64,000 nucleotides of DNA from an archaeon (GTDB lineage Archaea > Undinarchaeota > CAZHTU01 > JBDRCC01). How positions within the stretch are numbered: position 1 is the first letter of the stretch; the number at the start of each line of letters is the position of its first letter. A program made the translations under genes and the position numbers. Of this stretch, positions 3,158-58,852 are shown piece after piece. The notes beneath the pieces are model-generated. The model saw nothing but the letters and a program-made list of their open reading frames with translations. It was not told the DNA's origin and made no database searches. Location of the stretch: contig JBDRCC010000001.1 of assembly GCA_043822065.1 (NCBI GenBank), positions 19,332-83,331 of the forward strand, read 5' to 3'.

Positions 3158-3404
3158 TCCTCAGGTTTGTCTAATTTTAGACTTATTGAATGATTTGTTT
3201 AGTGAAAAAGGTAGGAAGTATATAAAATAGTAGGGTTTGTTTGAATATTATGAGCGGATATCCGGCTTTAATCCAAACAAATAGTATAGTATTATACATA
3301 ATTTATGTAATAAATACTATTGTGCACGCATTCGATAGTTAGCAGTATCCGAGAAAATTATATACCACTAGGTTTTAAGGGCAGGCAGGAAAGATGGAGT
3401 TGGG

Positions 3405-4874: not shown

Positions 4875-4877
4875 GCC

Positions 4878-5783: not shown

Positions 5784-5827
5784 GCGGCTGCTAAATTATT
5801 TAAATACAAATTATATCTTGGGTAGGC

Positions 5828-6460: not shown

Positions 6461-6512
6461 GAGCTGGGAAATTGTTTTAAGGTTAGACCTACTAATTCAA
6501 AGGGTGCCTGAT

Positions 6513-6586
6513 GCCCGGATGGGGTAGTCTGGATATCCTGACGGCTTGCGGAGCCGTTGACCCGAGTTCAAATCTCGGCCCGGGCA
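6513..6586 (+). tRNA. tRNA-Arg(GCG)
   Basis: Anticodon arm ACGGC-TTGCGGA-GCCGT, T arm CCGAG-TTCAAAT-CTCGG, acceptor GCCCGGA/CCCGGGC (one A.C mismatch); lies directly upstream of argS. Confidence 0.9.
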
Positions 6587-6618
6587 CTTATTTAAAAATA
6601 GGGGAGTTTAGGGAAATC

Positions 6619-8316: not shown

Positions 8317-9183
8317 ATGATAGTCTCCTGCGGGCACACGGCTTACGACAATATCTTTCGGCTCAAGGTCCTTCCTGAGCTGAACGGCTCCTGCGTCGTC
8401 GACCAGTTTGGCAGGCACTTTGGCGGCGGCGGGGCAAACGTCGCAGTGGCACTGGCAAAGCTTGGACTGAAGGTGAAGCTGTTCTCAACCGCCGGAGAGG
8501 ACTTCACGGGGTCGGAATACGAGAAGTCGCTAATCAAGAGCAAGGTGGACATTGAGCACGTGACCATAGCCGACGAGAAGACTGCCGAAAGCTGGATGTA
8601 CTTCGACGAAATGCAGCGCTACAAATGCTTCTTTTACTGGGGCGCGTCAAGGTTTTTGCAGTACTTCAAGGTCCCGACGGACATACGGAAGCACGACTTC
8701 TTTTTCAACGCCCTTGACCCGCAGTTTGTCAGGGCGAACATAGGGCTTGTCAAGGGGAAAGTCGCGTTCGACCCGTCGTATGACATATACCTCTACACGA
8801 AGGAGGACTTCGCTAAGATACTGCCGAGGGTGGACTACCTTTTCCTCAACGAGCACGAGTACCCGATTGTTATGAAGAACAGCGGCCTGACGAAGAACAA
8901 GATACTAAGGAAAGTGGGCACAATGGTTGTCTCAAAAGGCTCCGCCGGCTGCGAGGTCCACACCGAGAGCCATGTCCGGATGGTCCCAACTCCGCCAGTC
9001 GACGTCGTTGACACAGTCGGCGCAGGCGACGCGCACCGAGCAGGCTTTATGGCCGGCATAGAGAAGGGCTACAGCGAAGTGGAAGCAGCCAAAATTGGAA
9101 ACTTCGTCGCGTCATTTTCCATACAGGAATTCGGGGCGCAGGCGCGGCTCCCCACGTGGGAAGAAGTCGAAAAGCTCCTTTAG
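8317..9183 (+). CDS. PfkB-family carbohydrate/nucleoside kinase
   Basis: GGGGANVA, NEHE, VDTVGAGDAHRAG signatures. Confidence 0.92.
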   Translation: MIVSCGHTAYDNIFRLKVLPELNGSCVVDQFGRHFGGGGANVAVALAKLGLKVKLFSTAGEDFTGSEYEKSLIKSKVDIEHVTIADEKTAESWMYFDEMQRYKCFFYWGASRFLQYFKVPTDIRKHDFFFNALDPQFVRANIGLVKGKVAFDPSYDIYLYTKEDFAKILPRVDYLFLNEHEYPIVMKNSGLTKNKILRKVGTMVVSKGSAGCEVHTESHVRMVPTPPVDVVDTVGAGDAHRAGFMAGIEKGYSEVEAAKIGNFVASFSIQEFGAQARLPTWEEVEKLL

Positions 9184-9235
9184 GCTACTGCCCCGCAGAA
9201 ACTAATTTAAGCCGGCTTAGTCTTATAGGTATTAC

Positions 9236-9312
9236 GGGCCTGTAGCGCAGACTGGAAGCGCGAGTGGCTTCGGACCACTAGGTCGGGGGTTCAAATCCCT
9301 CCAGGCCCGCCA
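9236..9312 (+). tRNA. tRNA-Arg(TCG), CCA encoded
   Basis: Acceptor GGGCCTG/CAGGCCC, anticodon arm AGTGG-CTTCGGA-CCACT, T-loop TTCAAAT, ends GCCA. Confidence 0.95.
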
Positions 9313-9402
9313 TAATATTTGTAGGTGGTTTTCTTTGGGGTAATGCATAGACCTTTCTTTTTCTAAAAGAAAGGGATTCGCTGAAAATCCCTCCAGGCCC
9401 GC
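9293..9402 (+). mobile_element. Miniature element bounded by an 18-bp direct repeat of the tRNA-Arg(TCG) 3' end
   Basis: AAATCCCTCCAGGCCCGC at 9293-9310 and 9385-9402; internal hairpin 9352-9374 related to the element at 18155-18275. Confidence 0.65.
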
Positions 9403-9415
9403 TTATTTTCAGTTT

Positions 9416-10666
9416 TTATGCCGTTGGGTCTGCGACCTTTCCGATGAAAATGATGTTCCCGGTCTCTGTTTCCTGTATGATAAAGAGGAAGGGGTGGTCC
9501 GCGCGGAATATTTTAGGGGGCATGGGAAACCCCGTAAACTTCATTGCGACACCCGTTGCTGCTGCGACCTCGGTTCCCTCTTCGTTGACATCGATGTAAG
9601 CCTGGTGGAGCACTATGCCAATGTAAAGGTTCCGCGTGCCGTCCATCCCAGAAAAGTCTGCCTTGGCTGGCGAGAACGCCGTTGGCATTCCCATGGAGAT
9701 TAGGCTGTTTGTCAGGTCGTATTTGGTCTCAAAGGTGAACTTCGGGAGATAAACATCGACATCTTCGGCTTGCAGCTTGGCTCTCCACTCGCTTAGTTTC
9801 TCAAGGGACAGTGAATTTTCTAAGGCGGAAATATCCCCATCTTTTGGCAGGAGAACCAGCATGGAGAGCTGCTCTCCCACGTAGGGCATTTCAAGTATCT
9901 GGAGGTCATCCGTTTCTGTATATTTAAAGTTGGCTTCTTCCCCCGTCAGCTTCATCATTGGAACCTTGACAGTTTTGTAAGGGCTGACGCGGAAGTCTTC
10001 GTCCCTGGTGTCCGCCTTGTCAAACTGCTTGAGCCAGTCGCCCTTGAAGTAAACCGCATTTGTAAGCACGAAGCTTGTGTCTGGGGTTATTGTGCCCTCT
10101 GGAAACAGGTCTTTTATTTTGTTGTTAGTCTGACCTTCGACCCATGTGTTGATTGTGATGCGCGATTTCTCGGTTTCCCGGAGAAAGTCAACATTGGTTG
10201 CCTTCCCGCCATAGTATGATTCGACTGTGGTGAGGTACCCGTCCAGGAACTTGTAATCCTGCTGGGCCCAGAGGGCATTCGCAGTGTGGAGCTTGTACGC
10301 CTTGCCCTCTGCATTTAGCCGGTTGTAAAGGCTGGCGAAGGATGAGCGGCGGGCGGTGTCGTCTTCTGGAAAGTGGAATACGCCCAGCATCTCCTCTGCT
10401 GTCTCGCCGCGGGCGCCTTCGTATGCCATGGCTAACGCCGTGGAAATGCTCCAGGGGGAAATGAATAGGTTCTCGCCATCGGCTTTCAGTTCAGAATACG
10501 CGGCCAGGGCAAATTGCGTATTTGAGCCTATAAGCCCGCTGACCCCCTCCGGTGTTGCCTGGCTATCGTCTGCTGGTTGAGGGGAGGCTGGCGGCCTATC
10601 GCCGGTGCAGCCCATTGCAAGAACAAGGGCAAGCAGAAGCCATACGGGGAGGATTCCATTCTTCAT
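9416..10666 (-). CDS. Serpin (serine protease inhibitor), probable lipoprotein
   Basis: NLFISPWSI, LTNAVYFKGDW, hinge NEEGTEVAAAT, FRADHPFLFII; N-terminal LVLAMGC lipobox-like signal. Confidence 0.93.
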   Translation of the reverse strand: MKNGILPVWLLLALVLAMGCTGDRPPASPQPADDSQATPEGVSGLIGSNTQFALAAYSELKADGENLFISPWSISTALAMAYEGARGETAEEMLGVFHFPEDDTARRSSFASLYNRLNAEGKAYKLHTANALWAQQDYKFLDGYLTTVESYYGGKATNVDFLRETEKSRITINTWVEGQTNNKIKDLFPEGTITPDTSFVLTNAVYFKGDWLKQFDKADTRDEDFRVSPYKTVKVPMMKLTGEEANFKYTETDDLQILEMPYVGEQLSMLVLLPKDGDISALENSLSLEKLSEWRAKLQAEDVDVYLPKFTFETKYDLTNSLISMGMPTAFSPAKADFSGMDGTRNLYIGIVLHQAYIDVNEEGTEVAAATGVAMKFTGFPMPPKIFRADHPFLFIIQETETGNIIFIGKVADPTA

Positions 10667-23801: not shown

Positions 23802-24854
23802 ATGAGACACATAGTTAAGAAAAATATTAGCGGAAACGAGTATTATTATTTTCAACTCAAGCTAGCGTCGATAGACCCAAAAAAGGAGCCGTATCTGTAC
23901 AGCAAGTACATTGGCGAGTATTTGCCGTCAGAGTCTGTTCTAAAAAACTTTTTAATGAAGCGGGCGGAAGATTTGGCGATAATTACTGCGAGTAACCTTG
24001 GTAAGGGCATACGTACATATTTCAGAAATGGACCGGATATTAAAGAAGTAGAAAGGGATAGATGGTGGTTTTATTTTATTAACAATTACGATCTTTTTGA
24101 GGATCAAAATTCTACGTATCAGTCATTATTTGCCATACTATTTACGCTCCATACAAATGTAATAGAGGGCTCCAAAATGAGACAAGACGATATTATCGCC
24201 ATGACTAGTGACTCCCGGAAGAAAGTAGTCACCTTCGAAGAGAAAGAGGTCACAAATACCCTGGATGCACTCAAGTTTTCAGTTTCTAATGAAATGAAGT
24301 GGAATGTATCTTCAATAAAAAAACTTCATAGTAAGATATTGCCGGATGACCCCTTGGCCGGAAAATTTAGGATACGGGAGGTGGAGGTTGGTGATGCGAC
24401 GCGAACGCGACTGTACAATACCGTGGAACCGCAAAAAATTAGAAAAGAACTTAGAGAGTTACTTTACTGGTTCAACAGGGAACATAACAAGGTATATCCT
24501 CCTCAACTAGCTCTTGAATTCCATTGGAGATTTGAGAGAATCCACCCATTTCAAGATGGAAATGGGCGAGTAGGGAGATTACTGCTAAATAGAATACTAA
24601 TTGAGCACCACTTCATGCCAGTGATTTTCTTTTCGGAAAACGTTAGACAGTATTACGATGCAATAGCGCAAGCTAGAAACGGTAATTCTAGCAAGTTAGC
24701 TACGTTTTTCCTTAGGCAAAATAAAAAAACAAAGGAAGCCATGGAGCGTTTTAAAAGGGAAGGTATTGTCTCAGGACGGCGCTCTAGGATAGGTAGATGG
24801 ACGATTAAAAGAGGAAAAACACCGAAAGAGTACGACGTAGAGGCCGAGGAATAA
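23802..24854 (+). CDS. Fic-domain protein
   Basis: Canonical HPFQDGNGRVGR; TNVIEGS matches the inhibitory-helix motif; AT-rich relative to flanks. Confidence 0.9.
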   Translation: MRHIVKKNISGNEYYYFQLKLASIDPKKEPYLYSKYIGEYLPSESVLKNFLMKRAEDLAIITASNLGKGIRTYFRNGPDIKEVERDRWWFYFINNYDLFEDQNSTYQSLFAILFTLHTNVIEGSKMRQDDIIAMTSDSRKKVVTFEEKEVTNTLDALKFSVSNEMKWNVSSIKKLHSKILPDDPLAGKFRIREVEVGDATRTRLYNTVEPQKIRKELRELLYWFNREHNKVYPPQLALEFHWRFERIHPFQDGNGRVGRLLLNRILIEHHFMPVIFFSENVRQYYDAIAQARNGNSSKLATFFLRQNKKTKEAMERFKREGIVSGRRSRIGRWTIKRGKTPKEYDVEAEE

Positions 24855-24882: not shown

Positions 24883-26544
24883 TTACTTCTGGCCTAAGTA
24901 CAGCTGGTCGATATAGCTAAGGTCGCTGCAGTCCTCCGGCTTCCGGTCGTCCCTGAGGCAGACGAGCCGAGGAAAGCGGAGGGCGTAGCCTGACGAGTAT
25001 GTCGGAGATTTCTGTATCTCCTCGTAAGCGATTTCAAAGACAACTTCCGGCTTGATTTCAATCTTCTGGCCTTTCTCCGAGATTGCCAGGGGCTTGAGGA
25101 GCGCGGTCAGCTCCCTGAACTGGTCGTCGGACAGTCCCGTCGCCATTTTGCCGATTTCCAAAAACTCGCCGGTCTGGGCGTCCCGGCAGGCAAGGTAGAA
25201 CGAGCCGAACCAGGACGTCCTCCTCCCTTCGCCCCAGTCGGCGCCGATGACGACGAGGTCGAGGTTTTCCATTGTAGGCTTGATTTTGAGCATGTACCCG
25301 ACCCGCGAGCCAGGCTTGTACCCGGCGTCGAGGTTTTTCGCCATTATGCCCTCCTGCCTGTCCTTCAGGGCGGCGTCATAGAATTTCTGTATCTCCTTTT
25401 CATTGTCTGACACTATCTTTGTGGAGAGCCTTAGGCGGTCTGACTGTGACACAATCTTTTCAAGGGCTTCCCTGCGCCTTTTGAGCGGCTCGGAGAGGTA
25501 GTTCTTCCCGTCGAGGTAGAGGAGGTCGAATAGGTGGAGGGTGACCGGGTGGGACTTGGCTACCTCGTCGATGTCGTACTTCCGCTTTATCCGCTTTGAA
25601 AGCATCTGGAAGGGTAGCGCCTTCCCCGTCTTTGGGTCGGTGGCGACGGCTTCGCCTTCGATAATTGCGTTTTTTGCCTTGACTCCGTGCGAGACCATCT
25701 TGACTATGTCCGGGAACTGTTTTGTCACATCCTCAAGGCGGCGGGTATAAACTGTGATTTTTTTGTCAACGATGTGTATCTGGGTGCGGGCGCCGTCGAA
25801 CTTGTACTCGTACTGCGCCTTGCCTATGCGCTGGACCGCGTCCTTGATTCCATCTGCCTTCTGGGCGAGCATTACCTTGAGCGCCCTGCCTGGCTCGAGC
25901 TTGGACTTGAGGAGGCCGGGTTCCCCTGAGGACTTTGCAATCTTTGAGACCTCACTGAAGTCGTTGAGGATGTCGTATGAGTGCTGGACCGCCTGCGGCG
26001 AGACTTCGAACGCCTTTGCAATGGCGTCGCGGACTATGCCCTCGCCGACCCCAATTCTCAGGGTGCCGAGTATCGTCCTCACTATGTAGCATGCTTCCGC
26101 CGGGCTGGCGGAGGAGAGGAGCTTTGAGACGACAGCCATTTTCCTGTCCACCGACTTCGCCCCGGAGATTTCAGCAAGGCGTTTCAGTTCGGAGTGGACG
26201 CCTGCGGTGTCAAGGGTCGCAGATGCAAGCGTCTGCTGCCTTTTGAATTTAAGGAGCTCCCGCGCGGTTAGCCCGTGGTCCCCGGTCTTTTTCATGGCTT
26301 CGTCAAACTTTGCCTTTGGCGCGCCCGAGACCCGGAGGATTGCCTTCTCGACGAGCTTTGAGGCGATTCCTATCTCCTTGTCTGAGTGCGGGGGAAAGAC
26401 CCTGCCCTGGGAGAGGAGGACTACCGAGCCGAGGACTGCAGAAGGCGTTTTTGCTAGGAACTCAGCCAGTAGGGCAGTCTTTTCCAAAGTCTTTGGCGTG
26501 GACTCAAGGCGCCCGTATAAGCCTGCCAGTTCGGAGTACCGCAT
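24883..26544 (-). CDS. lig: ATP-dependent DNA ligase
   Basis: EYKFDGAR (adenylated Lys), EGEAV, FDLLY, EGIMAK, LRFPR. Confidence 0.96.
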   Translation of the reverse strand: MRYSELAGLYGRLESTPKTLEKTALLAEFLAKTPSAVLGSVVLLSQGRVFPPHSDKEIGIASKLVEKAILRVSGAPKAKFDEAMKKTGDHGLTARELLKFKRQQTLASATLDTAGVHSELKRLAEISGAKSVDRKMAVVSKLLSSASPAEACYIVRTILGTLRIGVGEGIVRDAIAKAFEVSPQAVQHSYDILNDFSEVSKIAKSSGEPGLLKSKLEPGRALKVMLAQKADGIKDAVQRIGKAQYEYKFDGARTQIHIVDKKITVYTRRLEDVTKQFPDIVKMVSHGVKAKNAIIEGEAVATDPKTGKALPFQMLSKRIKRKYDIDEVAKSHPVTLHLFDLLYLDGKNYLSEPLKRRREALEKIVSQSDRLRLSTKIVSDNEKEIQKFYDAALKDRQEGIMAKNLDAGYKPGSRVGYMLKIKPTMENLDLVVIGADWGEGRRTSWFGSFYLACRDAQTGEFLEIGKMATGLSDDQFRELTALLKPLAISEKGQKIEIKPEVVFEIAYEEIQKSPTYSSGYALRFPRLVCLRDDRKPEDCSDLSYIDQLYLGQK

Positions 26545-26626: not shown

Positions 26627-28351
26627 TTGCTAGGGATATCTGCAAGCAAGACAAAGAGAATTTTGGCCTACGCAAAGCCGCATCTAGGGCTGATGGCGCT
26701 TGTCTTCCTGGTTATGATAGTCGCCACGGCGCTCGGGCTCGTCAACCCGTACCTTATGAAGATATTAATCGACGACGTCCTCGTCGCCGGAAACCTCAGG
26801 CTCTTTGCATACGTGCTCGGCGCGTATATTGTGGTGATGGTGATTGCGATAGGGGTTACCATCGCGCTCAGCTATTATTCCACGCTCCTGACTGAGCGGA
26901 TTGCACTTGACGTGAGGAGGCAGCTGTTCAACCACATTGAGTCGATGTCCCTCGGCTTCTTCAAGGAGCGCAAGACGGGGGACATAGTGTCGCGGCTGAT
27001 GACAGACGTCTATGGGGTGCAGTCGTACATAACGACGTTCATGAACGGCATAGTGCTGAACATCATAACCCTGGTGATAATATTCGCAATAACGATGTCA
27101 ATCAACTGGCAGATTACGCTGATTTCCCTCTACATCGTGCCGTTTTATATCTGGGCTGAGAAGTACTACGGCAACCTGATGCGGAAGCAGAGGAGGAAGC
27201 TGCGGGAGCAAAGCGCAGACATGCTGGGCTTCCTTGAGGAGAACATAAACTTCGTCAAGCTGGTCAAGAGGTTCCACAGGGAGGAGTATGCCGAGGCGGA
27301 CTTCAAGAGGCGGGCGGAGAAGATGCTCAAGCTGGACGTCAAGGCGTCGCTCACGGGCGGGCTGGCTTCAAGCTTCATCGCGCTTGTGACATTCCTGCCC
27401 CTACTTGTCATCTTGGGGATTGGCGGCTACCAGGTGATAAAGGGGATGCTTACCATCGGCGGGATGATTGCGATATACACTTATATCGGCAAGCTGTTCG
27501 AGCCGATTGACAGCCTGAACTCCTCGGTCATGTCCCTCCAGGGCGCGCTTGCGTCCGTGGACCGCGTGTTTGAGTTCCTCGACAAGAAGGAAAAGATAGT
27601 GGACGCCCCTGACAGCGTGGCTGTCAAGTCCCTGAAGGGGGAGATAGAGTTCAAGAAAGTCAGCTTCAAGTTCAAGGACAAGGTCATCCTGGACAACGCA
27701 AGCTTCAGGATAAAGCCTGGCGAGCAGGCTTATCTCATCGGCGCCAGCGGGAGCGGGAAGAGCACGATTGGCGACCTGATATTCAGGTTCTACGACCCGG
27801 ACAAGGGGCAGGTGCTCATTGACGGCATGGATGTAAAAAAAATCAAGATTGGCTCCCTGCGCGAGCGGCTGGGGATTGGCTCGCAGGAGCTGATACTCTT
27901 CAATACCACGATTGCCGACAACATCCGCTTTGGCAAGACGCACGCAAAAATGGAGGAGGTAAAGGCGGCGGCGAAGACTGCGCAGGCTGCGGACTTCATC
28001 GAAAAAATGCCGGAAGGCTACGAGACAGTAGTAGGGCCTGGCGGCGGGCTTCTTTCCGGCGGGCAAAAGCAGAGGATATCCCTATCGAGGACGATTCTGC
28101 ACAACCCGGACATCTACATACTTGACGAGGTAACGACCGGGCTTGACCCGGAGTCTGAGAAAAAGATAGAAAGCGCCCTGCGGGAAGTGACCAAAGGCAA
28201 GACGACGGTGTACATAACTCACAAGCTCCGCTCTGCAAAAGGCGCGAAGAGGATTCTCTTCTTGAGGGACGGGAAAATAGTAGAGGATGGAAGCTTCGAC
28301 GCGTTGCTCAAGAAGAAAGGAGATTTTTACAAGTTCTACAAAGAAGGATAA
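26627..28351 (+). CDS. ABC exporter, fused TMD+NBD (no C39 peptidase domain)
   Basis: Six-TM N-terminal domain, GASGSGKS, LSGGQKQR, ILDE, ITH; abuts the radical SAM island. Confidence 0.92.
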   Translation: MLGISASKTKRILAYAKPHLGLMALVFLVMIVATALGLVNPYLMKILIDDVLVAGNLRLFAYVLGAYIVVMVIAIGVTIALSYYSTLLTERIALDVRRQLFNHIESMSLGFFKERKTGDIVSRLMTDVYGVQSYITTFMNGIVLNIITLVIIFAITMSINWQITLISLYIVPFYIWAEKYYGNLMRKQRRKLREQSADMLGFLEENINFVKLVKRFHREEYAEADFKRRAEKMLKLDVKASLTGGLASSFIALVTFLPLLVILGIGGYQVIKGMLTIGGMIAIYTYIGKLFEPIDSLNSSVMSLQGALASVDRVFEFLDKKEKIVDAPDSVAVKSLKGEIEFKKVSFKFKDKVILDNASFRIKPGEQAYLIGASGSGKSTIGDLIFRFYDPDKGQVLIDGMDVKKIKIGSLRERLGIGSQELILFNTTIADNIRFGKTHAKMEEVKAAAKTAQAADFIEKMPEGYETVVGPGGGLLSGGQKQRISLSRTILHNPDIYILDEVTTGLDPESEKKIESALREVTKGKTTVYITHKLRSAKGAKRILFLRDGKIVEDGSFDALLKKKGDFYKFYKEG

Positions 28352-28404
28352 GAATAAGTAGGAATGCATAATCTAAATAAAGAAACTAAAGCATATAAGC
28401 CATT

Positions 28405-30195
28405 ATGAAAATTCTGCTAATAGAGCCCAATGTACAAACATCAAATTACGTGTCCCAACGGGACTACAGGGACAATGGTGAGTTGGAGTCACCATGGGCA
28501 GGCTATCTAGCCGCAGTTATAGGTAGAAGGCATGATATAAAGTTCATAAATTGCTCGTTTCCCCCAACGGATAGTAGCGGATACTTTAGTATTAAAAGAA
28601 AGAAGAGCATTACCGATATTGAAATTTTGAACAACTTTAGAAAGTTCTCACCTTCGGTAGTCGCGTTTACATCTTATGAAAAATCATTTGAGAGAGTAGT
28701 AAAATTGGCAAAAAAGTTCAAGAGGACAAACCCAGCGTGCAAGATAGTCTTAGGTGGGCATTACCCAACGTTCACCTATACGCAATTGTTAGATGGGACG
28801 TGGTGCGATATCGTGGTTGTTGGTGAGGGATTCATTACCATAAAAGAATTAGTGTCATGTATAAACGCTGGAAAAAGCTTTGATGAAGTTAAAGGAATAG
28901 CCTATTTAGAGAATAATAGGATAGTTTATACTGGACGACGGGAGCCATTAAAAGATTTGGACGTTTTACCGTTTCCAGATAGGCAGATATACCCAAAATG
29001 CAAGGAGCTTACGGATAGCAGCATACTAATTATATCGTCGATGGGCTGCCCGTGGGGAAAATGCACATTTTGCAGTATTGGGGCGTTTTATAATGGGCGA
29101 CATTATGCAACACGATCGGCTAAAAACATTCTTGACGAGATTGAGTCAGTAGCTAGGGTAAGGGAAGTAAAATCAGTCCATTTTGTCACGGAAGGGGCAC
29201 TTTATCAGCTAAAAAGCATTATAAATGAAAAAGTAAAACGAGGGCTAAATTTTAAATTTACATTAGAGGCAAGGATTGATGAGATCCTAAGATTTAAAGA
29301 CAGTATAAGCTACGCAAAAAAAAATGGATTGGACGGGTTTCTTATAGGCATAGAAGTATTTTCCGACAGGATTTTAAAAATATTTAATAAAGGTTTGACC
29401 TGTGACAAAATAATATCTGCGCTCGACTACTTAGATGATTTGAGGATACCTAAATTGCTAGCATTTATTCCGTTTTCACCCTGGATAACCCGGGAAGAAT
29501 TTTTATACAATCTTAGAATGATGCTAAATTGCGCAGTCTGGAAAGATCCAAGACTGTATTATATCCCGTTAAACGAAATCTTTCAAGAGGTTGAGTTTTA
29601 CGCTGGAACTGAATTGCGAAAGCAGTATGGTAGGAGTTTAGATTATGAGAATGCGGACCTAAAAAAGGCGCTAGATAGGATGACTCATATACGAAGTATC
29701 AATAAACGCGTAGGGGATGCGGACACTGGCTCAGTAAGACTAAAATGGATCTCACTTGCGAGATATGTAGCTGGCAGTATTAGGGCGAAGAGTAAGTATC
29801 ATGGTAAGGGGATACCTGGGATCGGCCTAAATGCACAATACATAACAATAAACAAAGAAGACACGCCTTGCTTAATAAACAAAGATAGGACAATATATCG
29901 CCTTAATGGAAAGGAGTTGCGCGCAATGAGGGAATTAAAGCAAAAATCGCCTAATTTGTATGAAGAGATAGGGATGGTGATACTGCCCAGCAAGTCATAT
30001 TTAGTAGATGTTATGCGCAAGAGGGCCGCGCCTATAACAAAAGAACAGCTTGTTTTTGCGCAGTATTCTCTAATGGGGTTGACTGAAGGGGAGATACGCA
30101 AGCAATTCGAGTATGAAAAACTGAGGTACGCCCCGGGCAACATAAAAAGGTATTTAAATATAAAGAGAGATAGTTTGTATCGGAGGGAGGTATAA
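28405..30195 (+). CDS. B12-binding radical SAM protein with C-terminal extension
   Basis: B12-binding VLGGHYPT, DIVVVGEG, LPFPDR; cluster motif GCPWGKCTFC; GIE...KG; AT-rich. Confidence 0.9.
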   Translation: MKILLIEPNVQTSNYVSQRDYRDNGELESPWAGYLAAVIGRRHDIKFINCSFPPTDSSGYFSIKRKKSITDIEILNNFRKFSPSVVAFTSYEKSFERVVKLAKKFKRTNPACKIVLGGHYPTFTYTQLLDGTWCDIVVVGEGFITIKELVSCINAGKSFDEVKGIAYLENNRIVYTGRREPLKDLDVLPFPDRQIYPKCKELTDSSILIISSMGCPWGKCTFCSIGAFYNGRHYATRSAKNILDEIESVARVREVKSVHFVTEGALYQLKSIINEKVKRGLNFKFTLEARIDEILRFKDSISYAKKNGLDGFLIGIEVFSDRILKIFNKGLTCDKIISALDYLDDLRIPKLLAFIPFSPWITREEFLYNLRMMLNCAVWKDPRLYYIPLNEIFQEVEFYAGTELRKQYGRSLDYENADLKKALDRMTHIRSINKRVGDADTGSVRLKWISLARYVAGSIRAKSKYHGKGIPGIGLNAQYITINKEDTPCLINKDRTIYRLNGKELRAMRELKQKSPNLYEEIGMVILPSKSYLVDVMRKRAAPITKEQLVFAQYSLMGLTEGEIRKQFEYEKLRYAPGNIKRYLNIKRDSLYRREV

Positions 30196-30196
30196 A

Positions 30197-30379
30197 ATGC
30201 CAGAAATTAAAAAACTTAATCCGCCAACAGTTGACAAAATAGTGACTAACATGGGGAAAGTGAATTTAGCTCCAGAGTCAATAACGGCTATTCGTGGGGT
30301 TATAAAGGAACAGAAAGATGGCGCCGACACAAATATTGTTGACTGCAAAGGCAACCCGAACATGCTGGGTCAGAAATAG
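30197..30379 (+). CDS. Putative RiPP precursor peptide A (60 aa)
   Basis: Starts right after the radical SAM stop behind GGAGGGAGG; shares a VDKIVTNMxxVxL motif with peptide B; single Cys (DCKG). Confidence 0.65.
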   Translation: MPEIKKLNPPTVDKIVTNMGKVNLAPESITAIRGVIKEQKDGADTNIVDCKGNPNMLGQK

Positions 30380-30427
30380 TTAGGATAGTTGTAGTAACAT
30401 ACGCTTTACGCGCTACTTGGCTTTATG

Positions 30428-31798
30428 CTAGTAGCAATTTTTTATTTTTGGCAGGGTATCCTCGATTAGCACGTCATACTCGGCTATATCTATGGGTTTG
30501 GTAAGAAGTCTGCCGAGGAAATATTTCACAACGTCTTTCATTGGGGTGCATATCTCCTTAGACGGTTTGAATAATGATCCTGTGAAGCTAAGATTATTAT
30601 ACGGACAATAGCCCGCGCATATGTACTTACAAAAACAGGAAGCGCAGGCATTTATACGATGGACAGTAATATTTCGTATTAAATTAAGCTTCTTGGGATT
30701 TATGCGCACCTTGTTGCCGTTTATTGAGCCATAAACAAAAGTATTGCATACGCTATCGGTAAGATCGGATGCAACCAAACAAGAGAGTATTTTACCTCTG
30801 GGGTGAACCACAAACAAAGGGCCACTTGAGTTGCATCCATAAATGGTCAACCCAAATGGGCTCATCTGCAGACCCGACAGATAGATGCCATGTTTCTCAG
30901 CAAACTCTATGCAGCGCAATGATTCGTGCACAAACTTTTCAAGATCAGGTAGTTGCAAGGCAGATGCCCTGCCAAACTGCCGGCATGGAGCGAAAGAAAC
31001 CCGCTTTATCTTTAGGGAAACAAAATGCTTAAGAATTTCCATCATACGCCCCTCACAGTATTTTGTAAAGGTTGCAGATACCCCATAGGAAACGCCGTAT
31101 TTATTAAACATGGCTATAGTTCGTCTAACGGAGTGGTATGATTTGTTTCCAGACAGCAAAGGCCGCTGTGCATTCTGAATAGAGGGGGGACCGTCAAAAG
31201 AAAGCTGGACATGCGCGCCGATTTTTTTAAACCATTTAACCTGCGATTCATTCAATGTCCCGTTAGTGGTAGAGCTAACCCTGAGTTCAATCCCTCGTGC
31301 ATCACACTCCTTTTTTGCATAAGAGTAACAGCGTTTCATTAAATCAAACGCAAGGCTGGGTTCGCCTGCAGAAAAAAGCGATAGAAGGAAGGTTTTGTCA
31401 CTTTTTTTAATTCCGTAGTCTATTGCTGTCTTTGCTATGCTCCACGGCATGTAATAAACCGTAGTACTGCCAGTATTGGAACAACAATAAGTACAGCGCA
31501 TATTGCAATCAGTAGTCAATAGGAGAGTTACAGTAGGTATGGTAGATAACGCCGCCCTCAAGGTAGGCACGGTATCTTGGGAGTCAACGAATTTGAAAAA
31601 TCCTGTGACTAATCGGTGATTAGTATTTCTTTGCTCTACAAATTCCTTGTTTACGAGCGCAAGTATTCCCTTTTTTGGGACATAAATTATGTACTTGTTC
31701 GATTCGTAGGGAATAGTAAAGTGTTTGGATTTTGTTTTTGAAGGAACTGTCTTAGAATAACATATTTTCACGCTTTTGTATATCTTAGGCGCAGCCAT
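30428..31798 (-). CDS. Radical SAM/SPASM-domain peptide maturase
   Basis: CNMRCTYC, AGEP, TTNG, LSFDGP; SPASM C-x-...-GKILSC and CASCFCKYICAGYCP...C. Confidence 0.9.
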   Translation of the reverse strand: MAAPKIYKSVKICYSKTVPSKTKSKHFTIPYESNKYIIYVPKKGILALVNKEFVEQRNTNHRLVTGFFKFVDSQDTVPTLRAALSTIPTVTLLLTTDCNMRCTYCCSNTGSTTVYYMPWSIAKTAIDYGIKKSDKTFLLSLFSAGEPSLAFDLMKRCYSYAKKECDARGIELRVSSTTNGTLNESQVKWFKKIGAHVQLSFDGPPSIQNAQRPLLSGNKSYHSVRRTIAMFNKYGVSYGVSATFTKYCEGRMMEILKHFVSLKIKRVSFAPCRQFGRASALQLPDLEKFVHESLRCIEFAEKHGIYLSGLQMSPFGLTIYGCNSSGPLFVVHPRGKILSCLVASDLTDSVCNTFVYGSINGNKVRINPKKLNLIRNITVHRINACASCFCKYICAGYCPYNNLSFTGSLFKPSKEICTPMKDVVKYFLGRLLTKPIDIAEYDVLIEDTLPKIKNCY

Positions 31799-31871
31799 TG
31801 AAGTGTAGTACCTACCTAACTTTAAATAGTATTTGACAATATTTATATCCTATTGCCATATTATATTATTG

Positions 31872-32003
31872 ATGGTTTCAGTAGTGCACCCACTATTAAA
31901 AAAGGATGTAGAACGGATTGTTTCAAACTTGAAGAACTTGCATTTGGAGGATGCAGAGGCTAATGAGTTTATTGAACAGATAAGTGATCTATGTAGTGGC
32001 TAA
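31872..32003 (+). CDS. Putative RiPP precursor peptide B (43 aa), not in ORF track
   Basis: MVSVVHPLLKKDVERIVSNLKNLHLEDAEANEFIEQISDLCSG*; TTTATA about 25 nt upstream; motif shared with peptide A. Confidence 0.65.
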   Translation: MVSVVHPLLKKDVERIVSNLKNLHLEDAEANEFIEQISDLCSG

Positions 32004-33010
32004 GAGAGTTGATTGATAAGATACGCTATTCTTTGTCTTTGTGTTTCTGTTTTTGATTGAGCCAACTCGTGTTTCAATATCTGGATGGCAGTATCGAAGT
32101 TTTCACGAGGGGGAAATTCTATAAACAGATTTTTTTTCGTCAGCTTTTTTCCAATATACGCCTCGACGATCTTCTTTTCTGATTGTTTAGCTGGGATGGG
32201 TCTATCGCTCTGTAAAAAAGCGCGTGCAAAGGAAGTTATAAAATATTTTTTTCTGTTTGGGAGAATGTGGTCGATATCTGAAAATAAGCGATATAACGCC
32301 AACACTCTAAAACGAGGCTCAGTATTTGGCATTACGCCCTCCCAGGTACCGCCATACGTAGGTTCAAAATCAGCTATTTCCCCTTCAGTCGTTATGTTGT
32401 TTAATTCCATAGCACCATGGTATAGCCCAATATCAAACATTTTTCTTATGCTCTTGCCAAGGGTACTTGCGAGATAGTTGCAGTATTCCTTTTCAGTTTG
32501 TTTGCGGATCGCAAGATAGGCGTTTAGTATATCTGTTTCGAAGAGGAAGTCTGAGAGCCGCAACGGAGAAGCGAATGTTCTGGCAATAACTGCTAGTTTC
32601 TTCCCCTCGAAGGTACCATAATCGTAGCAACCAACTGGCCTCTGGCAAAAGACCCCTGCGTTAAATGCTATTTTAGAGAGATTATGTTCTGCTAATGCTG
32701 TGGGGAGTTCAACTCCGCCCCATGCAAACCGGTTTAGTAGCCGTATCTTTTGCCCCTCAAAACCAATCCCTTTGTATTCTATTCCAGGATACCATTGGTC
32801 CCCAGATCTCCACGGGACATAGAACCAAGCTGATCTTGATGAGTGGCTTTCAAGGCAGGTAATGTTCCCAGGGCGTACTGACAAGGCTGGAACGGGAATC
32901 TGCACATGTTCTTTAAAATAGAATTTTGTTTTTGCAGTTGAAAAATTATAACACTTGGGGTAGACCCTCCGGCTTAGTTTCCATACGTCCTCCAAAAAGT
33001 TCTTGACCAT
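32000..33010 (-). CDS. SelO/YdiU-like atypical kinase-fold protein
   Basis: YKGIG, ALAEH, ARTFASPLRLSD and YHGAMELNNITTEGEIADFEP follow the order and spacing of SelO KGxG, alphaC Glu, R-x-S-x-R and HGVMNTDN...DFGP. Confidence 0.6.
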   Translation of the reverse strand: MVKNFLEDVWKLSRRVYPKCYNFSTAKTKFYFKEHVQIPVPALSVRPGNITCLESHSSRSAWFYVPWRSGDQWYPGIEYKGIGFEGQKIRLLNRFAWGGVELPTALAEHNLSKIAFNAGVFCQRPVGCYDYGTFEGKKLAVIARTFASPLRLSDFLFETDILNAYLAIRKQTEKEYCNYLASTLGKSIRKMFDIGLYHGAMELNNITTEGEIADFEPTYGGTWEGVMPNTEPRFRVLALYRLFSDIDHILPNRKKYFITSFARAFLQSDRPIPAKQSEKKIVEAYIGKKLTKKNLFIEFPPRENFDTAIQILKHELAQSKTETQRQRIAYLINQLS

Positions 33011-33121
33011 GTCTGTGCACTTAGAAGTACCAATAGGGGATTTATATAGCTTACTTTGCAGAATACGAACACTTCATCTTGAGGCAAATGTTAAATAAAT
33101 GTAGCTATAAGAGAGTATACG

Positions 33122-34429
33122 ATGAGAATAGCTTTGATAACCCCAGTCCAGACGTTTAATAGGGCAGTTGAGATTATTCCATACCCAAGTCTTGGATTAC
33201 TATATCTCGCAGCGTATCTTGAAAAAAAAGGACATAAGGTAAGAATAATAGACCTGCCTTTTTTAATGATAAAAAACAAGGAGAATATGACTTTTTCTAG
33301 GGTTAGAGAGATTCTCAAAGAGTACAACCCAGATGTGATTGGGATAACCACACGGTGCCTGGATTATCCTTTTGATATACTGCTAGCACGGAATATAAAG
33401 AGGTTCATCAAAAAACCAATAATCTTTGGAGGTGTGCAGGCAACGCATACTGCTTACGACACGATAAAGGAGTTCAAGTGGGTAGATTTTGTTGTGAAGG
33501 GGGAGGGAGAGGTAACATTTATTGAACTCTTGACCGCCATTAAGGAAGGCAGACCATTCAATGAGGTGAGAGGTATTGTGTATAGAGAGGGCAACCGCGT
33601 AATTGAAACGAAAGACCGCCCATTCATTGAGGATATTGACTGTCTTCCTTTGCCAGCGTATCATTTGATACCAAAAGTAAAGAAGTACGGTTTAGACGCA
33701 ATCCCTCTCATAACAACACGTGGGTGCCCCTTCAACTGCGCTTTCTGTTCGGTCTCAACAATGTGGAAAAGGACATTACGATGTAGGGGTGTACGCAGCA
33801 TTATGCAGGAGATTAAACGGGAAAGAAAACGGCAGGGATTGAACCATGTTTCAATAAAGGATGACACGTTTACAGTAGATAATAGACGGCTCAAGATTTT
33901 GTGTAGAGAGTTCAAAAAAGAGGGAGTTACGTGGACTTGCTTTTCAAGGGTAGACACGATAGATGAAGATATGCTTGAGCTTATGAAGGATAGTGGGTGT
34001 AACGGTATTTTTTATGGTGTTGAGTCAGCTTCGGTAAGAATACTGAAAAAAATAAGAAAGGGTGATAAAAGATTTTTGGAGAATGCCAGAAAAAATATTA
34101 AGAAGTGCCATGAGCTAGGTTTAGAACAGATTGTGTCGTTTATAATAGGATTTCCTAGTGAAACTGAGAAAGAAATCGCTAAAACGGTTGATATGGCGGA
34201 GAAAATGAAAAAACGGGGTTGCTCTACACAAGTTCATTTCCTCAGCCCGCTCTCTGGGTCGGACATCTATAAGAGCAATAAGAACAATTTAATATTTGTA
34301 GGCCACTCGTCAGACGTATCTAGTGTCCGTGGCTTGAGTAAGAAATATGTGGATTTGATAAAGAAGTACCCACATATTTTCCCTCAATTTTATATTATTA
34401 AAAACAGTGCACTTGCGAAATGGATTTAG
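33122..34429 (+). CDS. B12-binding radical SAM protein (class B methyltransferase-like)
   Basis: PSLGLLYLAAYL, IFGGVQAT, VVKGEGE, TTRGCPFNCAFC, DDTF, GVES, FIIGFPSET. Confidence 0.92.
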   Translation: MRIALITPVQTFNRAVEIIPYPSLGLLYLAAYLEKKGHKVRIIDLPFLMIKNKENMTFSRVREILKEYNPDVIGITTRCLDYPFDILLARNIKRFIKKPIIFGGVQATHTAYDTIKEFKWVDFVVKGEGEVTFIELLTAIKEGRPFNEVRGIVYREGNRVIETKDRPFIEDIDCLPLPAYHLIPKVKKYGLDAIPLITTRGCPFNCAFCSVSTMWKRTLRCRGVRSIMQEIKRERKRQGLNHVSIKDDTFTVDNRRLKILCREFKKEGVTWTCFSRVDTIDEDMLELMKDSGCNGIFYGVESASVRILKKIRKGDKRFLENARKNIKKCHELGLEQIVSFIIGFPSETEKEIAKTVDMAEKMKKRGCSTQVHFLSPLSGSDIYKSNKNNLIFVGHSSDVSSVRGLSKKYVDLIKKYPHIFPQFYIIKNSALAKWI

Positions 34430-34443
34430 GCGTTTTACGCGAT

Positions 34444-36087
34444 TCAATTAAAAAATTTATCAAAGTTGATTAGCAGTTCTTGTGAGTCTTCATCCTTGAG
34501 CAATACTCCTTTTCCGACTGTGTTGTAGACCAAGTCGATATGCATACTGCAAGAGATGTCACCGTAAAAATTTGTATTCCGACCAAGTGCAATATGGAAT
34601 GAGTTTCTTTGCTTTTCATCGAGTAATGGGCTGCCAATTGGTCTATTGCCAAGGAAACCTATGCCAAACTCACCCATGTACGGGAAGCTATCAGTATCCC
34701 CAAAGCTCTTTGCTTGGTCAAACATTTCCGCAACCACTTTAGAATTGCGAGCTGCAGACCATTTGGCTACCTTTCCGTTTTTAAAAGTAAGATGCAGACC
34801 TTCAATTTTTTTTCCAAAGTAGAATACCTCATCGAATAGTATTTTGCCATTTGTTTTTTCTTTTAGCGGTGCGATAAAGACTTCTCCTGATGGGATATTA
34901 AGGGAATATTTGGCGCCTTCTTTCTGCTCGTCATCTATCAAAGCCCTGCGACCGTCCGTACTAAACCTCAGCTCAAGCGAACCATCTTTAGAGGACAACA
35001 AGAGATTTTTGCGATTTCCTATAAGAAGTTTAGCGTTATGCATTTTTTCGCGAGGCAGATTTAAAAAAATAGAGAGGGCGTCCTCGAGAACCCTGCAAAG
35101 GTCAGTATAATTAGAATAACTTAGTGCTGATCTGTTTGCTTTGAAATCAGAATAGCTAGGGTAATCCACTAGTATATGTGTGGCATGCCTGTGCCTTTTT
35201 TCGATAACCTCCTTAAGAGTATCAGAAAACCTTTGCGGTTTCCATTTGATTTCGTGGCCAGATGCATTATCCTCTTTCATAAAGTTTATCGTCCCGTTGA
35301 CATAAGCTGCCCGGTTGTAGTCCGACTTTCGCATCACATTGAGTATAGCATTATGCGCATCGCGGTTTAAGGCTACAAAATATTTTAGGTCCCCAGCATC
35401 ACCAGTCCCATGGCAGCCTTTCTTCCAAAGGGCATCTAAAAGAGAATACGCCATTTGTAGAATAGCTGGAACGCCAAATTCAGTACCTATACTTACCCAA
35501 GACTTTTTGGGGTAGTCATAAAAATCGTTAACTATGTAATCCGCAAGCTTTGCATGATTTGGATAAGCAAATTCCATAAGACGAGCGCGCTGTTTGGCAG
35601 TGTAGGTGTAATAAATCCGTTTCCCATTTTTTAATTTCAAGAAGCGAGTTCGAGGATATCCTGGAAAAGCAGGTTGGAATATGGTTAGTAGGTCTTGACC
35701 GGCTACATTTGTATGGTTAAGATATTGTGAAAAGTTTTTTGATTTTTCTTTGTTTAGATCATTTTCATCAAAACGCGAAAAAACTATTCTTTTATTGAAA
35801 TCGGACTTCAATTTTTCCGAAAAAATGGAGTCATAGCGCCTATCGTCAAAAATGCAGATTTTGGAAAGGGCGCCCACTTTAGCAAATTTCTCGGTCAGGG
35901 AGTACGCAAGTTCTATTTGAGCTAAAACATTTGGGTTGATTTCAAAGAGGATGTCATCCTTTTCAGATGGATCTATTCTGGTGACTATTTCCTCTTCTAG
36001 CCCCATTGGGTAACAGTACCTGCTAGTTGCTTTTGTGAGTGAGGGGCTGTAGGATATGTACGGATCCATAGAATATACTTGTACCAA
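34444..36087 (-). CDS. M29-family aminopeptidase with extended divergent N-terminus
   Basis: NIPSGEVFIAP, GEFGIG, LLDEK...HIALG, MHIDLV metal-ligand motifs; start uncertain (TTG 36087 or ATG 36069). Confidence 0.75.
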   Translation of the reverse strand: MVQVYSMDPYISYSPSLTKATSRYCYPMGLEEEIVTRIDPSEKDDILFEINPNVLAQIELAYSLTEKFAKVGALSKICIFDDRRYDSIFSEKLKSDFNKRIVFSRFDENDLNKEKSKNFSQYLNHTNVAGQDLLTIFQPAFPGYPRTRFLKLKNGKRIYYTYTAKQRARLMEFAYPNHAKLADYIVNDFYDYPKKSWVSIGTEFGVPAILQMAYSLLDALWKKGCHGTGDAGDLKYFVALNRDAHNAILNVMRKSDYNRAAYVNGTINFMKEDNASGHEIKWKPQRFSDTLKEVIEKRHRHATHILVDYPSYSDFKANRSALSYSNYTDLCRVLEDALSIFLNLPREKMHNAKLLIGNRKNLLLSSKDGSLELRFSTDGRRALIDDEQKEGAKYSLNIPSGEVFIAPLKEKTNGKILFDEVFYFGKKIEGLHLTFKNGKVAKWSAARNSKVVAEMFDQAKSFGDTDSFPYMGEFGIGFLGNRPIGSPLLDEKQRNSFHIALGRNTNFYGDISCSMHIDLVYNTVGKGVLLKDEDSQELLINFDKFFN

Positions 36088-36156
36088 GGGCTATAAAAAG
36101 AATAGCATGGAGGGATAAACGTTAAATAAGCGCAGATACTTCTTACCTGCGGGGAC

Positions 36157-53868: not shown

Positions 53869-56800
53869 CTATCCGCCAACCACAGGCACGACCTGGACTG
53901 GTGTTGTTGCCTCTTTTTCCTTTGACTCGTAGGTGAACTTTATCCTCGCCTGGCTGAGGTGCAGCTGGCCCTCGATTGGGATTATCATCACTTTGTACGC
54001 GAGCTGAAGCGTCTGCCCAGGCATGATGTTCTGCAGGCTCCACGCAAGGCGCGTCCCCTCCATTACCTTCTCCACCTGCGGCACAAGGCGCGGGTCTACG
54101 CCGGCAAACGAATCAGGAAGCAGTGTGAACCCGAGCGGCAGGGTGTCATGGACGATTACGCTGTTCATCGGGCTGTCGGACTCGTTCCGGATTGAAAGGT
54201 TGATTGCAATCTGGTTCTGGGCGTTTCTGACGAGCTGCTTCGGCCAGGTGTATTTCGCAAGGGTGACTTTCGCCTCCGTGCCAGCAACGCAGACTTTTTC
54301 CGGCGGGCGGAGCATCAGCTGGATGCTTGCAGGTATACGCCTGACAAGGCTTGGCGGGAGCCTTGCAAGGAGGTTTTTCTCCTGGACGGTTATTATTATC
54401 ACTTCGCGCTTGTAGTAGCCAAACCCGGCAAGCAGGCAGAATGTGACAAGGGTCGCAATCAAGGTAAGGCTTACCCCAAATGGTGGGGCGGCTGCTCCTG
54501 CTTCAACCGGCTCTGGCGGAAGCGTTTCCGGGATTGGTATGTCCTTGATGAGCGCATACGCCTGATCTAGCAGGAGCTTCATTCCGGCGTAGTCCCCTTC
54601 CGCCTCTTTCACCTTTGCCTGCTGGAGGAGTTTCTTCGCCTCGTTGACAGCAGTCACGTCTTCGCCCTTTACATTCCCGAGAAGCGCGAAGACCTTGTTT
54701 TCCACGTCGTCCAACAGAGGGGATATTAGCTCATCGACCTGCGCTTCAGAGTCGCTTATCGCAGTATTGAATTTGGAGAATGCCAGATCCGCCTTGGATT
54801 TTGCGTTCGGGTAGTCGGACGCCCCGTATAGGTTGTTTGCCTGGGAAAGGAGAGCATCGCCCCCCTCGAGGGAGGCATTGGCTTCGGCAGTGGACAAATC
54901 TAAGGATTCAAGGCTGAATATCCATGACACTAAGCTGTCCCGCGCCTTGCTCGCGGCATTAAGGGCGGAAAGCGCTTCGGACGCGGAAGTCGTGAGCGGC
55001 GTTTCGCCGAGGTAGGGCAGAAGGTGGAATTTTATCCTGGCTGTTTTGCAGGTCCCTACTGAGAGGTAGGTCCCGTTCTCGGATTTGACTCCGCAAACAT
55101 CCGCCTTTATCTGGGCGCTGTAGTAGAATGTCCCGTTTTCTGCTGTGGACGGGACTAATACCCGCACATAAACGTCCTTTTTCTCCTTTGCAGGCACCTC
55201 TACGGATTCTGACTCGTACCAGTCCGGGTCCATGCCTGACATTCGCATGTGAAGGTGCGCAAGCTCGTCTCCCTCGTTTTCTACGGTATAGATTAGCGTC
55301 TTCTCGACCCCAAGCGTCAGGTTGACCTCCCGCTCGAAGGAGTCAAAGGAGATTGGCTTTGCTGTAAGTGTGACTGAGGAGGATGACGAGCCGCCGCCTG
55401 TGTCGTCACCAGTGCCGCTTGTAGCATTTTCCACAAGGCTCACTATGACTGAAGAGGTGCCGTTGCCGTAATTGCCGTTTCTTGAGTAGCCGACTGTGAC
55501 ATTGTAGGTGCCGGGGTAGGTGATTGTCATCGTGCATAAGACAACCCGGGCGCCTGCACCGAGGCCTTTTTCGCTTGAGGTCATGTACTGGCTCGGGCTG
55601 CAGGACACAGCCCCGCTGGCAGACGTGTCAATATCCGCGCCGTGGATGTCGCTGACTATGTAGTAGAAGTAGCTTGCAGTGTCCTCGTTCACGAGGGAAG
55701 TAAGGCTCTGGGCTGTCAGGATAAGGCTTGAAGAGACGCTGAGCGTCGTGTTCGCATAGGCGCTCTCGTTTGACGTCTGGTTCTTCCAGTGGAATACTAC
55801 TGACTTGACTCCAGTAGTGCCGGTGAGGGATGCCTGGCGGGTTGCGTTGTACAGCCCTGCTGTCGCGGTTTCCGTGACTGTGAAGGGCTCGCCTTCGCCC
55901 TCGACGGTGACATTCGCAGTCATATTTGCAGAGGTGTTCACTATCCCTGTAACCGGGCTCCCAGCTTTCGTGAGGTTCACCCATACACCATAATACTCAT
56001 AGCGGTTAAGCACAAGGTCAGCCGGGTTTGAGGTCAGGTAAGAAACCCATATGTCTGCGAGAATCGTAGAGTTGACATAGACATTTATGAAATCGGTAAC
56101 GGAGATGTTGCCTTTCGTTCCCGTAACATAAATGGTGTGGGGGCCGGATTCAGTGAAGTTGAAATGGCAGGTTGCGTTGCCTGCTGCATCGGTATTTGTC
56201 CGGTAGATTGCCATGCCTGCGCCGCCCCTCCAGGTGTCGTTGCAGGTTATGTTGGCGTCCGGCACGAAAGCGGTTGAGTTGAAGAGGCTGACGTTGACGT
56301 ATCCGGCTGTGTTTTCAGGATAGGTGGATGCGTTGGCAGTTATGTTCATGTAGAGCCAGTCGATGTAGTAGAGGACGGATGTGTTGACCGAGTTATTGCA
56401 CTGGTCGTAGGCGTAGACTGTGAAGTTTGCGGGCCCGTACTGCCCCAAAACGAAGCGGCAGGTGACGTCTGTCCCGTTGGCAGTTATGTTGATTGTCTCA
56501 AGAGTCTGGCTGTTGATGCAGCTGAGGTTCGCGACTGGGGCTCTCAAGCCGGACGCATCGAAGATGCCGACGGCCAATGAGAGGTTTGTGCCGTTGGAGT
56601 AATAGACAAAGGTAGGCGTGATGCTTGCCGACAGGAGGTCTGTTACATACAAAGTGATGTTGCCATATGCAATCTCGGCGCCCGCTGTTTGGTTGTAGAT
56701 GACACTTAGGAGGGACTGGGTGGTGTCGTTGACTGTGTAGTTTCCGCGCAGGAGCTGGAATGAGCTGGAGTAGGTTTCGTTCCTAAGGGGGATTGTGGTG

Positions 56801-58803: not shown

Positions 58804-58852
58804 AAACGTTATCAAGGCAACCAATCATTTAAACCTTTGTTTTTATCGGAGA

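Follow-up and report, generated by a model that had tools for sequence, protein, structure and literature searches.

A low-GC cassette in an Undinarchaeota genome with a radical SAM/SPASM maturase, a well-supported peptide precursor and a probable second precursor

We analyzed a 64,000-nucleotide stretch of a genome of the archaeal phylum Undinarchaeota (contig JBDRCC010000001.1 of assembly GCA_043822065.1, positions 19,332 to 83,331), referred to below as the window, in which two short open reading frames (ORFs), peptides A and B, flank the gene for a radical S-adenosylmethionine (SAM) enzyme of the SPASM type. On balance, we interpret the surrounding gene island as a horizontally acquired cassette for a peptide that is made on ribosomes and modified after translation (RiPP) in an archaeal genome of about 1 Mb, with A as a precursor and B most likely as its paralogue. 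That a RiPP-type cassette is present is the firm part of this interpretation, as judged from gene content and sequence comparison. The cassette is a predicted case of an already familiar type of system and introduces no new principle.

The source genome comprises 1.03 Mb and is 82% complete. The cassette coincides with a low-GC stretch of approximately 7.8 kb (about 28,352–36,156 in window coordinates, used throughout) with about 40% GC overall. The island genes (28405–36087) have a GC content of 0.39–0.42 and a GC content at third codon positions (GC3) of approximately 0.40, whereas the genes on both sides, encoding a DNA ligase, an ABC exporter and a ribulose-phosphate epimerase, have a GC content of 0.54–0.57 and a GC3 of 0.69–0.76. 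The large genes of the island encode two B12-binding radical SAM enzymes of 596 and 435 residues, the radical SAM/SPASM enzyme, a 336-residue protein and a 547-residue protein similar to M29 peptidases. Neither convincing flanking direct repeats or tRNA genes nor an integrase was found at the island borders in the window.

Peptide A (30197–30379, + strand) is 60 residues long, with a predicted leader at about residues 1–45, a predicted core at about residues 46–60 and a single cysteine, Cys50. Its start codon is located 1 nt past the stop codon of the gene for the 596-residue B12-binding enzyme and is preceded, at a distance of 5 nt, by the ribosome-binding site GGAGGT (30186–30191, +). The position, the residues, the single cysteine and the strong Shine-Dalgarno (SD) site that a first-pass annotation had reported for A were all recovered in the sequence. 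An SD-like 5-mer was found at just 11% of the 620 proxy genes (long ORFs) examined in this genome, and most transcripts therefore look leaderless; the majority of its mRNAs are probably of this type. Judged by gene order, A is translationally coupled to the upstream B12-binding enzyme gene, and its strong SD site marks an internal cistron. In a codon-usage score trained on five large island genes, A ranked first among 89 small island segments.

When used alone as the query, A retrieved no relative among 5.77 billion proteins. The first-pass annotation had suggested a search for the leader motif next to homologous enzymes, and for A this search was successful. A 62-residue ORF (P0032) is located directly upstream of, and on the same strand as, a 31%-identical SPASM gene in a distant Candidatus Undinarchaeales metagenome-assembled genome (MAG; G012), which belongs to the same phylum in GTDB. 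The ATG codon of P0032 is preceded by its own SD site, GGAGGTGA. Residues 12–41 of A align without gaps to residues 14–43 of P0032 (BLASTP, E=9e-5). A profile built from these two peptides yielded one further member, P0033, which shows 79% identity to P0032 (45/57), the changes being mostly conservative. Three members of the precursor family, B not counted, were thus found among 5.8 billion proteins. In A, the block within the leader is V-[DE]-x-I-[VM]-T-x-x-x-K-[VL]-x-[LI]-x-P. In a four-way alignment that includes B, the leaders align, the last 15 or so residues are divergent, and a single cysteine column is invariant.

A therefore displays the features by which RiPP precursors are generally recognized: a small ORF next to a maturase gene, a conserved leader and a variable core. 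An A-like ORF is present beside the SPASM gene in one of the two other SPASM-bearing loci. No family match was obtained for A or B in Pfam, NCBIfam or PADLOC, including the models of known radical SAM RiPP precursors (SCIFF, Nif11/NHLP leaders). The earlier proposal of a conserved recognition sequence combined with divergent cores is borne out for A, with its homologous leader of about 45 residues, its variable C-terminal segment of about 15 residues and its retained cysteine; B shares only the first leader block. Sequence comparison thus gives good support to A as a true precursor, one that belongs to a new family.

The maturase gene (30428–31798, − strand) encodes a protein of 456 residues with a domain of about 85 residues in front of the CxxxCxxC motif. 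The cysteines of this motif (C98, C102 and C105) are invariant in seven homologues, and the protein matches the Pfam Radical_SAM family (PF04055, E 8.2e-13). Seven further cysteines are also invariant in the seven homologues (C322, C340, C385, C388, C394, C398 and C417), with the spacing C322...G335-x4-C340, C385-x2-C388-x5-C394-x3-C398 and C417. This spacing fits the pattern of a SPASM domain with two auxiliary clusters, C-x9-15-G-x4-C ... C-x2-C-x5-C-x3-C ... C, and the maturase thus has the complete set of SPASM cysteines. Its Pfam matches did not include a SPASM model. In profile searches, the nearest solved structure was CteB (5wgg, E 3e-56), followed by the anaerobic sulfatase maturase anSME (E 1.7e-36), and a comparison with CteB using the single maturase sequence gave an E-value of 6.6e-22. 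The maturase subfamily is at most 36% identical to anything else found. The maturase is accordingly placed, from these searches, as a relative of thioether-forming enzymes that is located outside every named family.

The maturase resembles CteB/SCIFF-type and PapB-type systems in several respects, with a CxxxCxxC core, a seven-cysteine SPASM region, an extra N-terminal domain, an adjacent small cysteine-bearing ORF and an exporter. The differences are a low maturase identity and precursors with one cysteine instead of six and no repeat of the Cys-X3-Asp type. The best NCBIfam matches of the enzyme are maturases of peptides, of which several form thioethers. By analogy with these nearest relatives (CteB, PapB-type and SCIFF-type), all of which were matched below the family cut-offs, we infer that the cysteine may serve as a thioether donor, as had been suggested in the first-pass annotation. 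The N-terminal domain of the maturase would bind the leader block, and the enzyme would then join the sulfur of the core cysteine to a carbon of another residue to give a thioether of the sactionine or ranthionine type. The N-terminal segment of about 85 residues is modelled as four strands and two helices with a predicted local distance difference test score (pLDDT) of 43–76, a moderate confidence; a RiPP recognition element (RRE) may plausibly be located at this position.

Several observations weigh against the thioether proposal. The best NCBIfam matches are the maturases of the nif11-type (TIGR04064), PapB, SCIFF, HxsB and QhpD families, all far below the cut-offs; the scores relative to the curated equivalog cut-offs were 111.9/425 for SCIFF (TIGR03974), 125.5/340 for PapB (NF047865) and 140/518.7 for the nif11-type maturase. 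The N-terminal 89 residues showed no Pfam match at E≤10 and no match to an RRE family. A and B each contain a single cysteine and no recognisable acceptor motif, and only two residues follow the cysteine in B, such that any crosslink partner must be located upstream. An alternative is that the ORFs are real but do not give rise to a secreted peptide with thioethers. Either the enzyme would catalyze another type of SPASM chemistry (crosslinking through C-C or C-O bonds, epimerisation, conversion of cysteine to formylglycine, or formation of a cofactor similar to pyrroloquinoline quinone or mycofactocin), or the ORFs would encode small enzyme partners. The failure to reach the cut-off of any thioether family is in line with this alternative, as are the top NCBIfam match to TIGR04064, a family that the search output does not define as thioether-forming, the second rank of anSME among the solved relatives, and the single cysteine lacking an acceptor motif, which is atypical of multi-bridge thioether peptides. 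However, we consider the alternative highly unlikely, since the four cores diverge at every position but the cysteine, which is the sole column kept in all of them, the cores vary among the homologues, unlike those of cofactor precursors, the exporter is conserved in all three cassettes, and CteB is by far the closest of the solved relatives.

Peptide B (31872–32003, + strand; 43 residues from the first ATG), with its single Cys41, is a probable shorter paralogue of A. It is located in the 201-nt spacer between two genes on the − strand, those for the 336-residue protein and the maturase, such that A and B flank the maturase gene, as the first-pass annotation had described. Its position, residues, single cysteine and own TATA-like box were likewise all present in the sequence. 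B is divergent from the maturase gene, and 73 nt separate the two start codons. In all three frames of the − strand, the segment 31799–31999 carries stop codons, and no small − strand ORF is thus present upstream of the SPASM gene, which is the position of the precursor in G012.

The promoter arrangement is consistent with B being a gene. Genome-wide, the TATA-like hexamer TT[TA]A[AT]A is concentrated 32 to 27 nt before start codons, with a mode at −28 (83 occurrences, 620 proxy genes); among upstream hexamers, TTTATA shows the strongest enrichment. The TTTATA box of B (31842–31847, +) is located 30 nt before its ATG, inside the genome peak, and the TTTAAA box of the SPASM gene (31821–31826, −) is located 28 nt before the start, at the genome-wide mode. 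Together, the two form a compact divergent promoter pair. A TATA-like hexamer is found at this distance by chance at 2.2% of the island positions and at 11 of 262 ATG triplets. The TATA box of B would then direct the synthesis of a leaderless mRNA, with transcription running divergently to that of the maturase gene. A scan for sigma-70 promoters was set aside as uninformative, the host being archaeal.

We used a profile of A, P0032 and P0033, constructed without B, as an independent test of B. The score of B against this profile was reached by 10 of 5000 residue shuffles for the full profile and by 6 of 5000 for the leader block alone, and hhalign gave P=0.0032 over 20 columns. Among 28,186 six-frame segments of the genome, B ranked 15th with the full profile and 12th with the leader block, and besides A it is the sole such match within the island. 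The score was 5.8 bits for the full profile as compared to 5.6 bits for the leader alone; the likeness in the C-terminal I-x-D-(L)-C-x-G requires a gap and contributes almost nothing. The leader motif of B starts at residue 13, whereas in the remaining three peptides it starts at residues 12, 14 and 15.

Codon usage points in the same direction. The log-likelihood ratio for B was 0.269 per codon, as compared to a mean of 0.193 in windows of real genes (n=219), and B ranked second among the 89 small island segments, after A. The score of B was reached by none of 106 open off-frame windows, by 51 of 3000 open nucleotide shuffles and by 62 of 3000 open Markov sequences. When the B stretch was shuffled at the nucleotide level, only 3000 of 128,791 shuffles remained open.

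Other results argue against B as a paralogue. BLASTP gave no alignment between A and B at E≤100, and none between B and P0032. The best local alignment of A and B scored 30, a value equalled in 105 of 5000 shuffles, and seven unrelated small segments of the window scored higher against A (33–38). In a phmmer search with A as the query, B was placed at about rank 22 (E=51). The two peptides are thus not significantly alike when compared as a pair. Even with the profile, 11–14 unrelated genome segments match or exceed the score of B, as do four unrelated segments in a mixed six-frame set from the window and nine loci, and the homology probability from hhalign was only 9.9%. B lacks most of the second leader block, and its stop codon overlaps that of the convergent 336-residue protein gene by 4 nt. 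Searches for homologues of B were negative, both in the three genomes that carry the cassette and in 301 related genomes. The profile of all four peptides, when run over the 301 related genomes, matched small ORFs only in the window (A and B) and in G012. Three weak matches to this profile (E 0.002–0.006) were dismissed, as they are located inside ORFs of 1020, 262 and 448 residues. A predicted complex of the SPASM enzyme with B scored 0.00 against a mark of 0.32; controls were absent and the result carries no weight either way.

These negative results would be expected if only A were a precursor and B were a chance ORF in an AT-rich spacer that holds the promoter of the SPASM gene and the 3′ end of the 336-residue protein gene, the shared block being a coincidence of helix-forming residues. 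The single precursor in the G012 cassette agrees with this explanation, and B was chosen after A had been seen, which introduces a built-in selection. However, a chance ORF requires that four features coincide in one free frame beside the maturase gene: a profile match at the level of 0.1–0.2% of composition-matched shuffles, a codon usage found in about 2% of open shuffles, a TATA hexamer at the modal distance (2–4% by chance) and a motif at the distance from the start that is typical of the family. The rarity of shuffles that stay open also speaks against it. Approximately 90–200 island frames were open to a reader's choice, and when this number is allowed for, the joint coincidence that would explain B is still estimated to be small. 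We therefore regard the chance ORF as the less probable explanation, though one to be taken seriously.

The four lines of evidence for B (profile match, codon usage, a TATA box with the modal spacing and a motif placed as far from the start as in the family) are independent and each is modest, and they make B a probable paralogue. Taken together, it is fairly likely that B is a real gene homologous to A. The earlier claim of paralogous precursors thus gains support from these four lines and none from the pairwise similarity of A and B, which does not exceed chance. Of the motif that the two peptides were said to share, the leader block is modestly above chance when tested against the profile without B, whereas the pairwise likeness does not exceed chance and the C-terminal part, with its gap, adds next to nothing to the score.

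The remaining cassette genes are consistent with peptide modification and export. The 596-residue B12-binding radical SAM enzyme (28405–30195, +) matches the Pfam families B12-binding and Radical_SAM, while all NCBIfam matches are below the cut-off, and it is a probable peptide C-methyltransferase as judged from its domains. Its C-terminal segment of about 177 residues (29662–30192) showed no Pfam match. Since enzymes of the ApyD type carry a peptide-binding domain, this extension could, by analogy, recognise peptide A, whose gene directly follows. A second B12-binding radical SAM enzyme, of 435 residues (33122–34429, +), has ApyD as its best curated match (NCBIfam NF050148, E 3.7e-76), with 257 bits as compared to a cut-off of 750. 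The match spans positions 23–431 of the 645 in the ApyD profile, and the C-terminal part of ApyD is thus missing. Both B12-binding enzymes would add C-methyl groups. ApyD is reported to make beta-methyltyrosine in a RiPP and to carry an RRE (10.1101/2023.10.30.564719). The rest of the apy cluster, with its MNIO enzyme and P450, is absent here.

The 547-residue protein (34444–36087, −) matches Pfam Peptidase_M29 over residues 362–505 (E 3.6e-17) and is a candidate for the peptidase that would trim the leader; its N-terminal 360 residues were assigned to no family. Just outside the low-GC stretch, the window encodes an MsbA-type ABC exporter of 574 residues (26627–28351, +) that matches Pfam ABC_membrane and ABC_tran and is without a peptidase domain. 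From its conserved position, this protein is the probable exporter of the product, which it would secrete. Orthologues are located beside SPASM genes and genes for the 336-residue protein in two other loci (E 3e-170 in L019, the G012 locus, and E 1e-198 in L020). The composition of the window copy is host-like (GC 0.54, GC3 0.76). This copy may stem from an earlier acquisition, or it may be a resident gene next to which the island was inserted. Genes for a Fic-domain protein (23802–24854, +) and an ATP-dependent DNA ligase (24883–26544, −) are located just upstream. The largest ORF of the window encodes 1651 residues (53869–58824, −). A defence-system interpretation was rejected, as PADLOC gave only weak cross-matches to radical SAM proteins (pVip, 8.9e-8; PDC-M51A, 3.5e-19).

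The 336-residue protein (32000–33010, −) could be assigned to neither a Pfam nor an NCBIfam family (E≤0.01). Its structural model, with a pLDDT of 93.9, suggests a pseudokinase fold similar to SelO/YdiU. Comparison with SelO gave a Z-score of 17.8 with a root-mean-square deviation of 3.2 Å over 244 aligned residues, as compared to 13.1 for the next family. SelO/YdiU proteins occupy the top seven structure rows (Z 16.2–17.8), which is 3 to 4.7 Z above that family. SelO and YdiU are pseudokinases that AMPylate or UMPylate. By our own reading, the nucleotide site of the 336-residue protein retains its Lys, Glu, Asn and Asp, but the catalytic-loop Asp of kinases is replaced by Ala, Ser or Thr. It is also about 130 residues shorter than SelO chains. 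We know of no RiPP role for a SelO-like protein.

The family of the 336-residue protein comprises 19 representatives in 1.84 billion proteins. Its gene adjoins the SPASM gene in the window, in L019 and in L020. Outside these three cassettes, homologues are found beside ABC-2-type transporters and FtsZ, and no radical SAM gene is present in the fetched flanks, and the family is therefore not specific to RiPP systems. In most loci, among which are L014, L016, L017 and L021, the gene adjoins that of a transporter, an MsbA-type exporter in the cassettes and an ABC-2-type ATPase and permease elsewhere; L021 contains two tandem copies of the gene. The target or partner of the 336-residue protein may be a transporter and not the peptide.

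The combination of SPASM gene, 336-residue protein gene and ABC exporter gene recurs in two other archaeal loci. In the G012 locus (L019), the 336-residue protein is 52% identical to the window copy, the ABC exporter is orthologous and a single precursor is present. The second locus, L020, belongs to a MAG of the Methanobacteriota, in which it forms an island (approximately 3000–9531) of 30% GC within a 60%-GC genome, and contains two SPASM genes, the exporter gene and the gene for the 336-residue protein. The second SPASM gene is cut off by the end of the contig, and the rest of this gene was not found on another contig of the same genome. A search for the maturase in the phylum of L020 gave a match at E≤1e-25 in only one of 401 genomes, namely that of L020 itself. 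Compositional islands in two hosts, with 40% GC in a background of 54–57% and 30% GC in a background of 60%, point to transfer of the cassette between distant archaea.

L020 is without both B12-binding radical SAM genes and the M29-like gene. It encodes, in addition, a protein with a CxxCxxCC domain (PF03692; 4459–4998, −) and a double-GNAT acetyltransferase (7035–7976, +). The set of tailoring enzymes thus differs between cassettes. A search of the available 6.5 kb of the L020 island for an A-like ORF was negative, a result that weighs against the cassette interpretation. Peptide profiles run over L020, L013 and L018 gave a best score of 4.1 bits, which is noise.

The closest archaeal parallel is CrpC of Methanococcus voltae, a radical SAM/SPASM enzyme with a predicted RRE that installs ranthionine crosslinks in CrpA, a protein encoded in the same cluster. 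CrpC is reported as a first archaeal thioether example (PMC13692751). Almost none of the archaeal radical SAM RiPP clusters is known to have been characterised. As predicted here, both systems comprise an archaeal radical SAM/SPASM enzyme that modifies cysteine in a substrate from the same cluster, a likeness drawn from the description of CrpC and not from its sequence. CrpA is large and rich in cysteines, whereas the peptides described here have 43–60 residues and a single cysteine. Genome mining has predicted radical SAM RiPP clusters in archaea, including DPANN (PMC12144867). The literature search retrieved no account of the present cassette, the supplementary tables of the mining papers being outside the search.

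The cassette adds to the known diversity of such systems a precursor family without database relatives, a divergent maturase subfamily, a conserved SelO-like partner and evidence of transfer between lineages, and it represents a small, well-defined target for heterologous reconstitution. For a genome of about 1 Mb, it is notable that 7.8 kb, with two cobalamin-dependent enzymes, should be given over to a peptide. In the broadest interpretation, a mobile low-GC cassette circulates among unrelated archaea, represented by two lineages of Undinarchaeota and one MAG of the Methanobacteriota, and equips a genome-reduced, probably host-dependent DPANN cell with a secreted peptide from two paralogous single-cysteine precursors. 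The peptide would be made by a CteB-like thioether synthase and two cobalamin-dependent C-methylases, together with a SelO-like nucleotidyl-transferase whose substrate would be either the peptide or the exporter. To our knowledge, this combination of enzymes has not been described for any RiPP. It is quite unlikely that this interpretation holds in full; if it were true, the product might mediate the interaction between the symbiont and its host.

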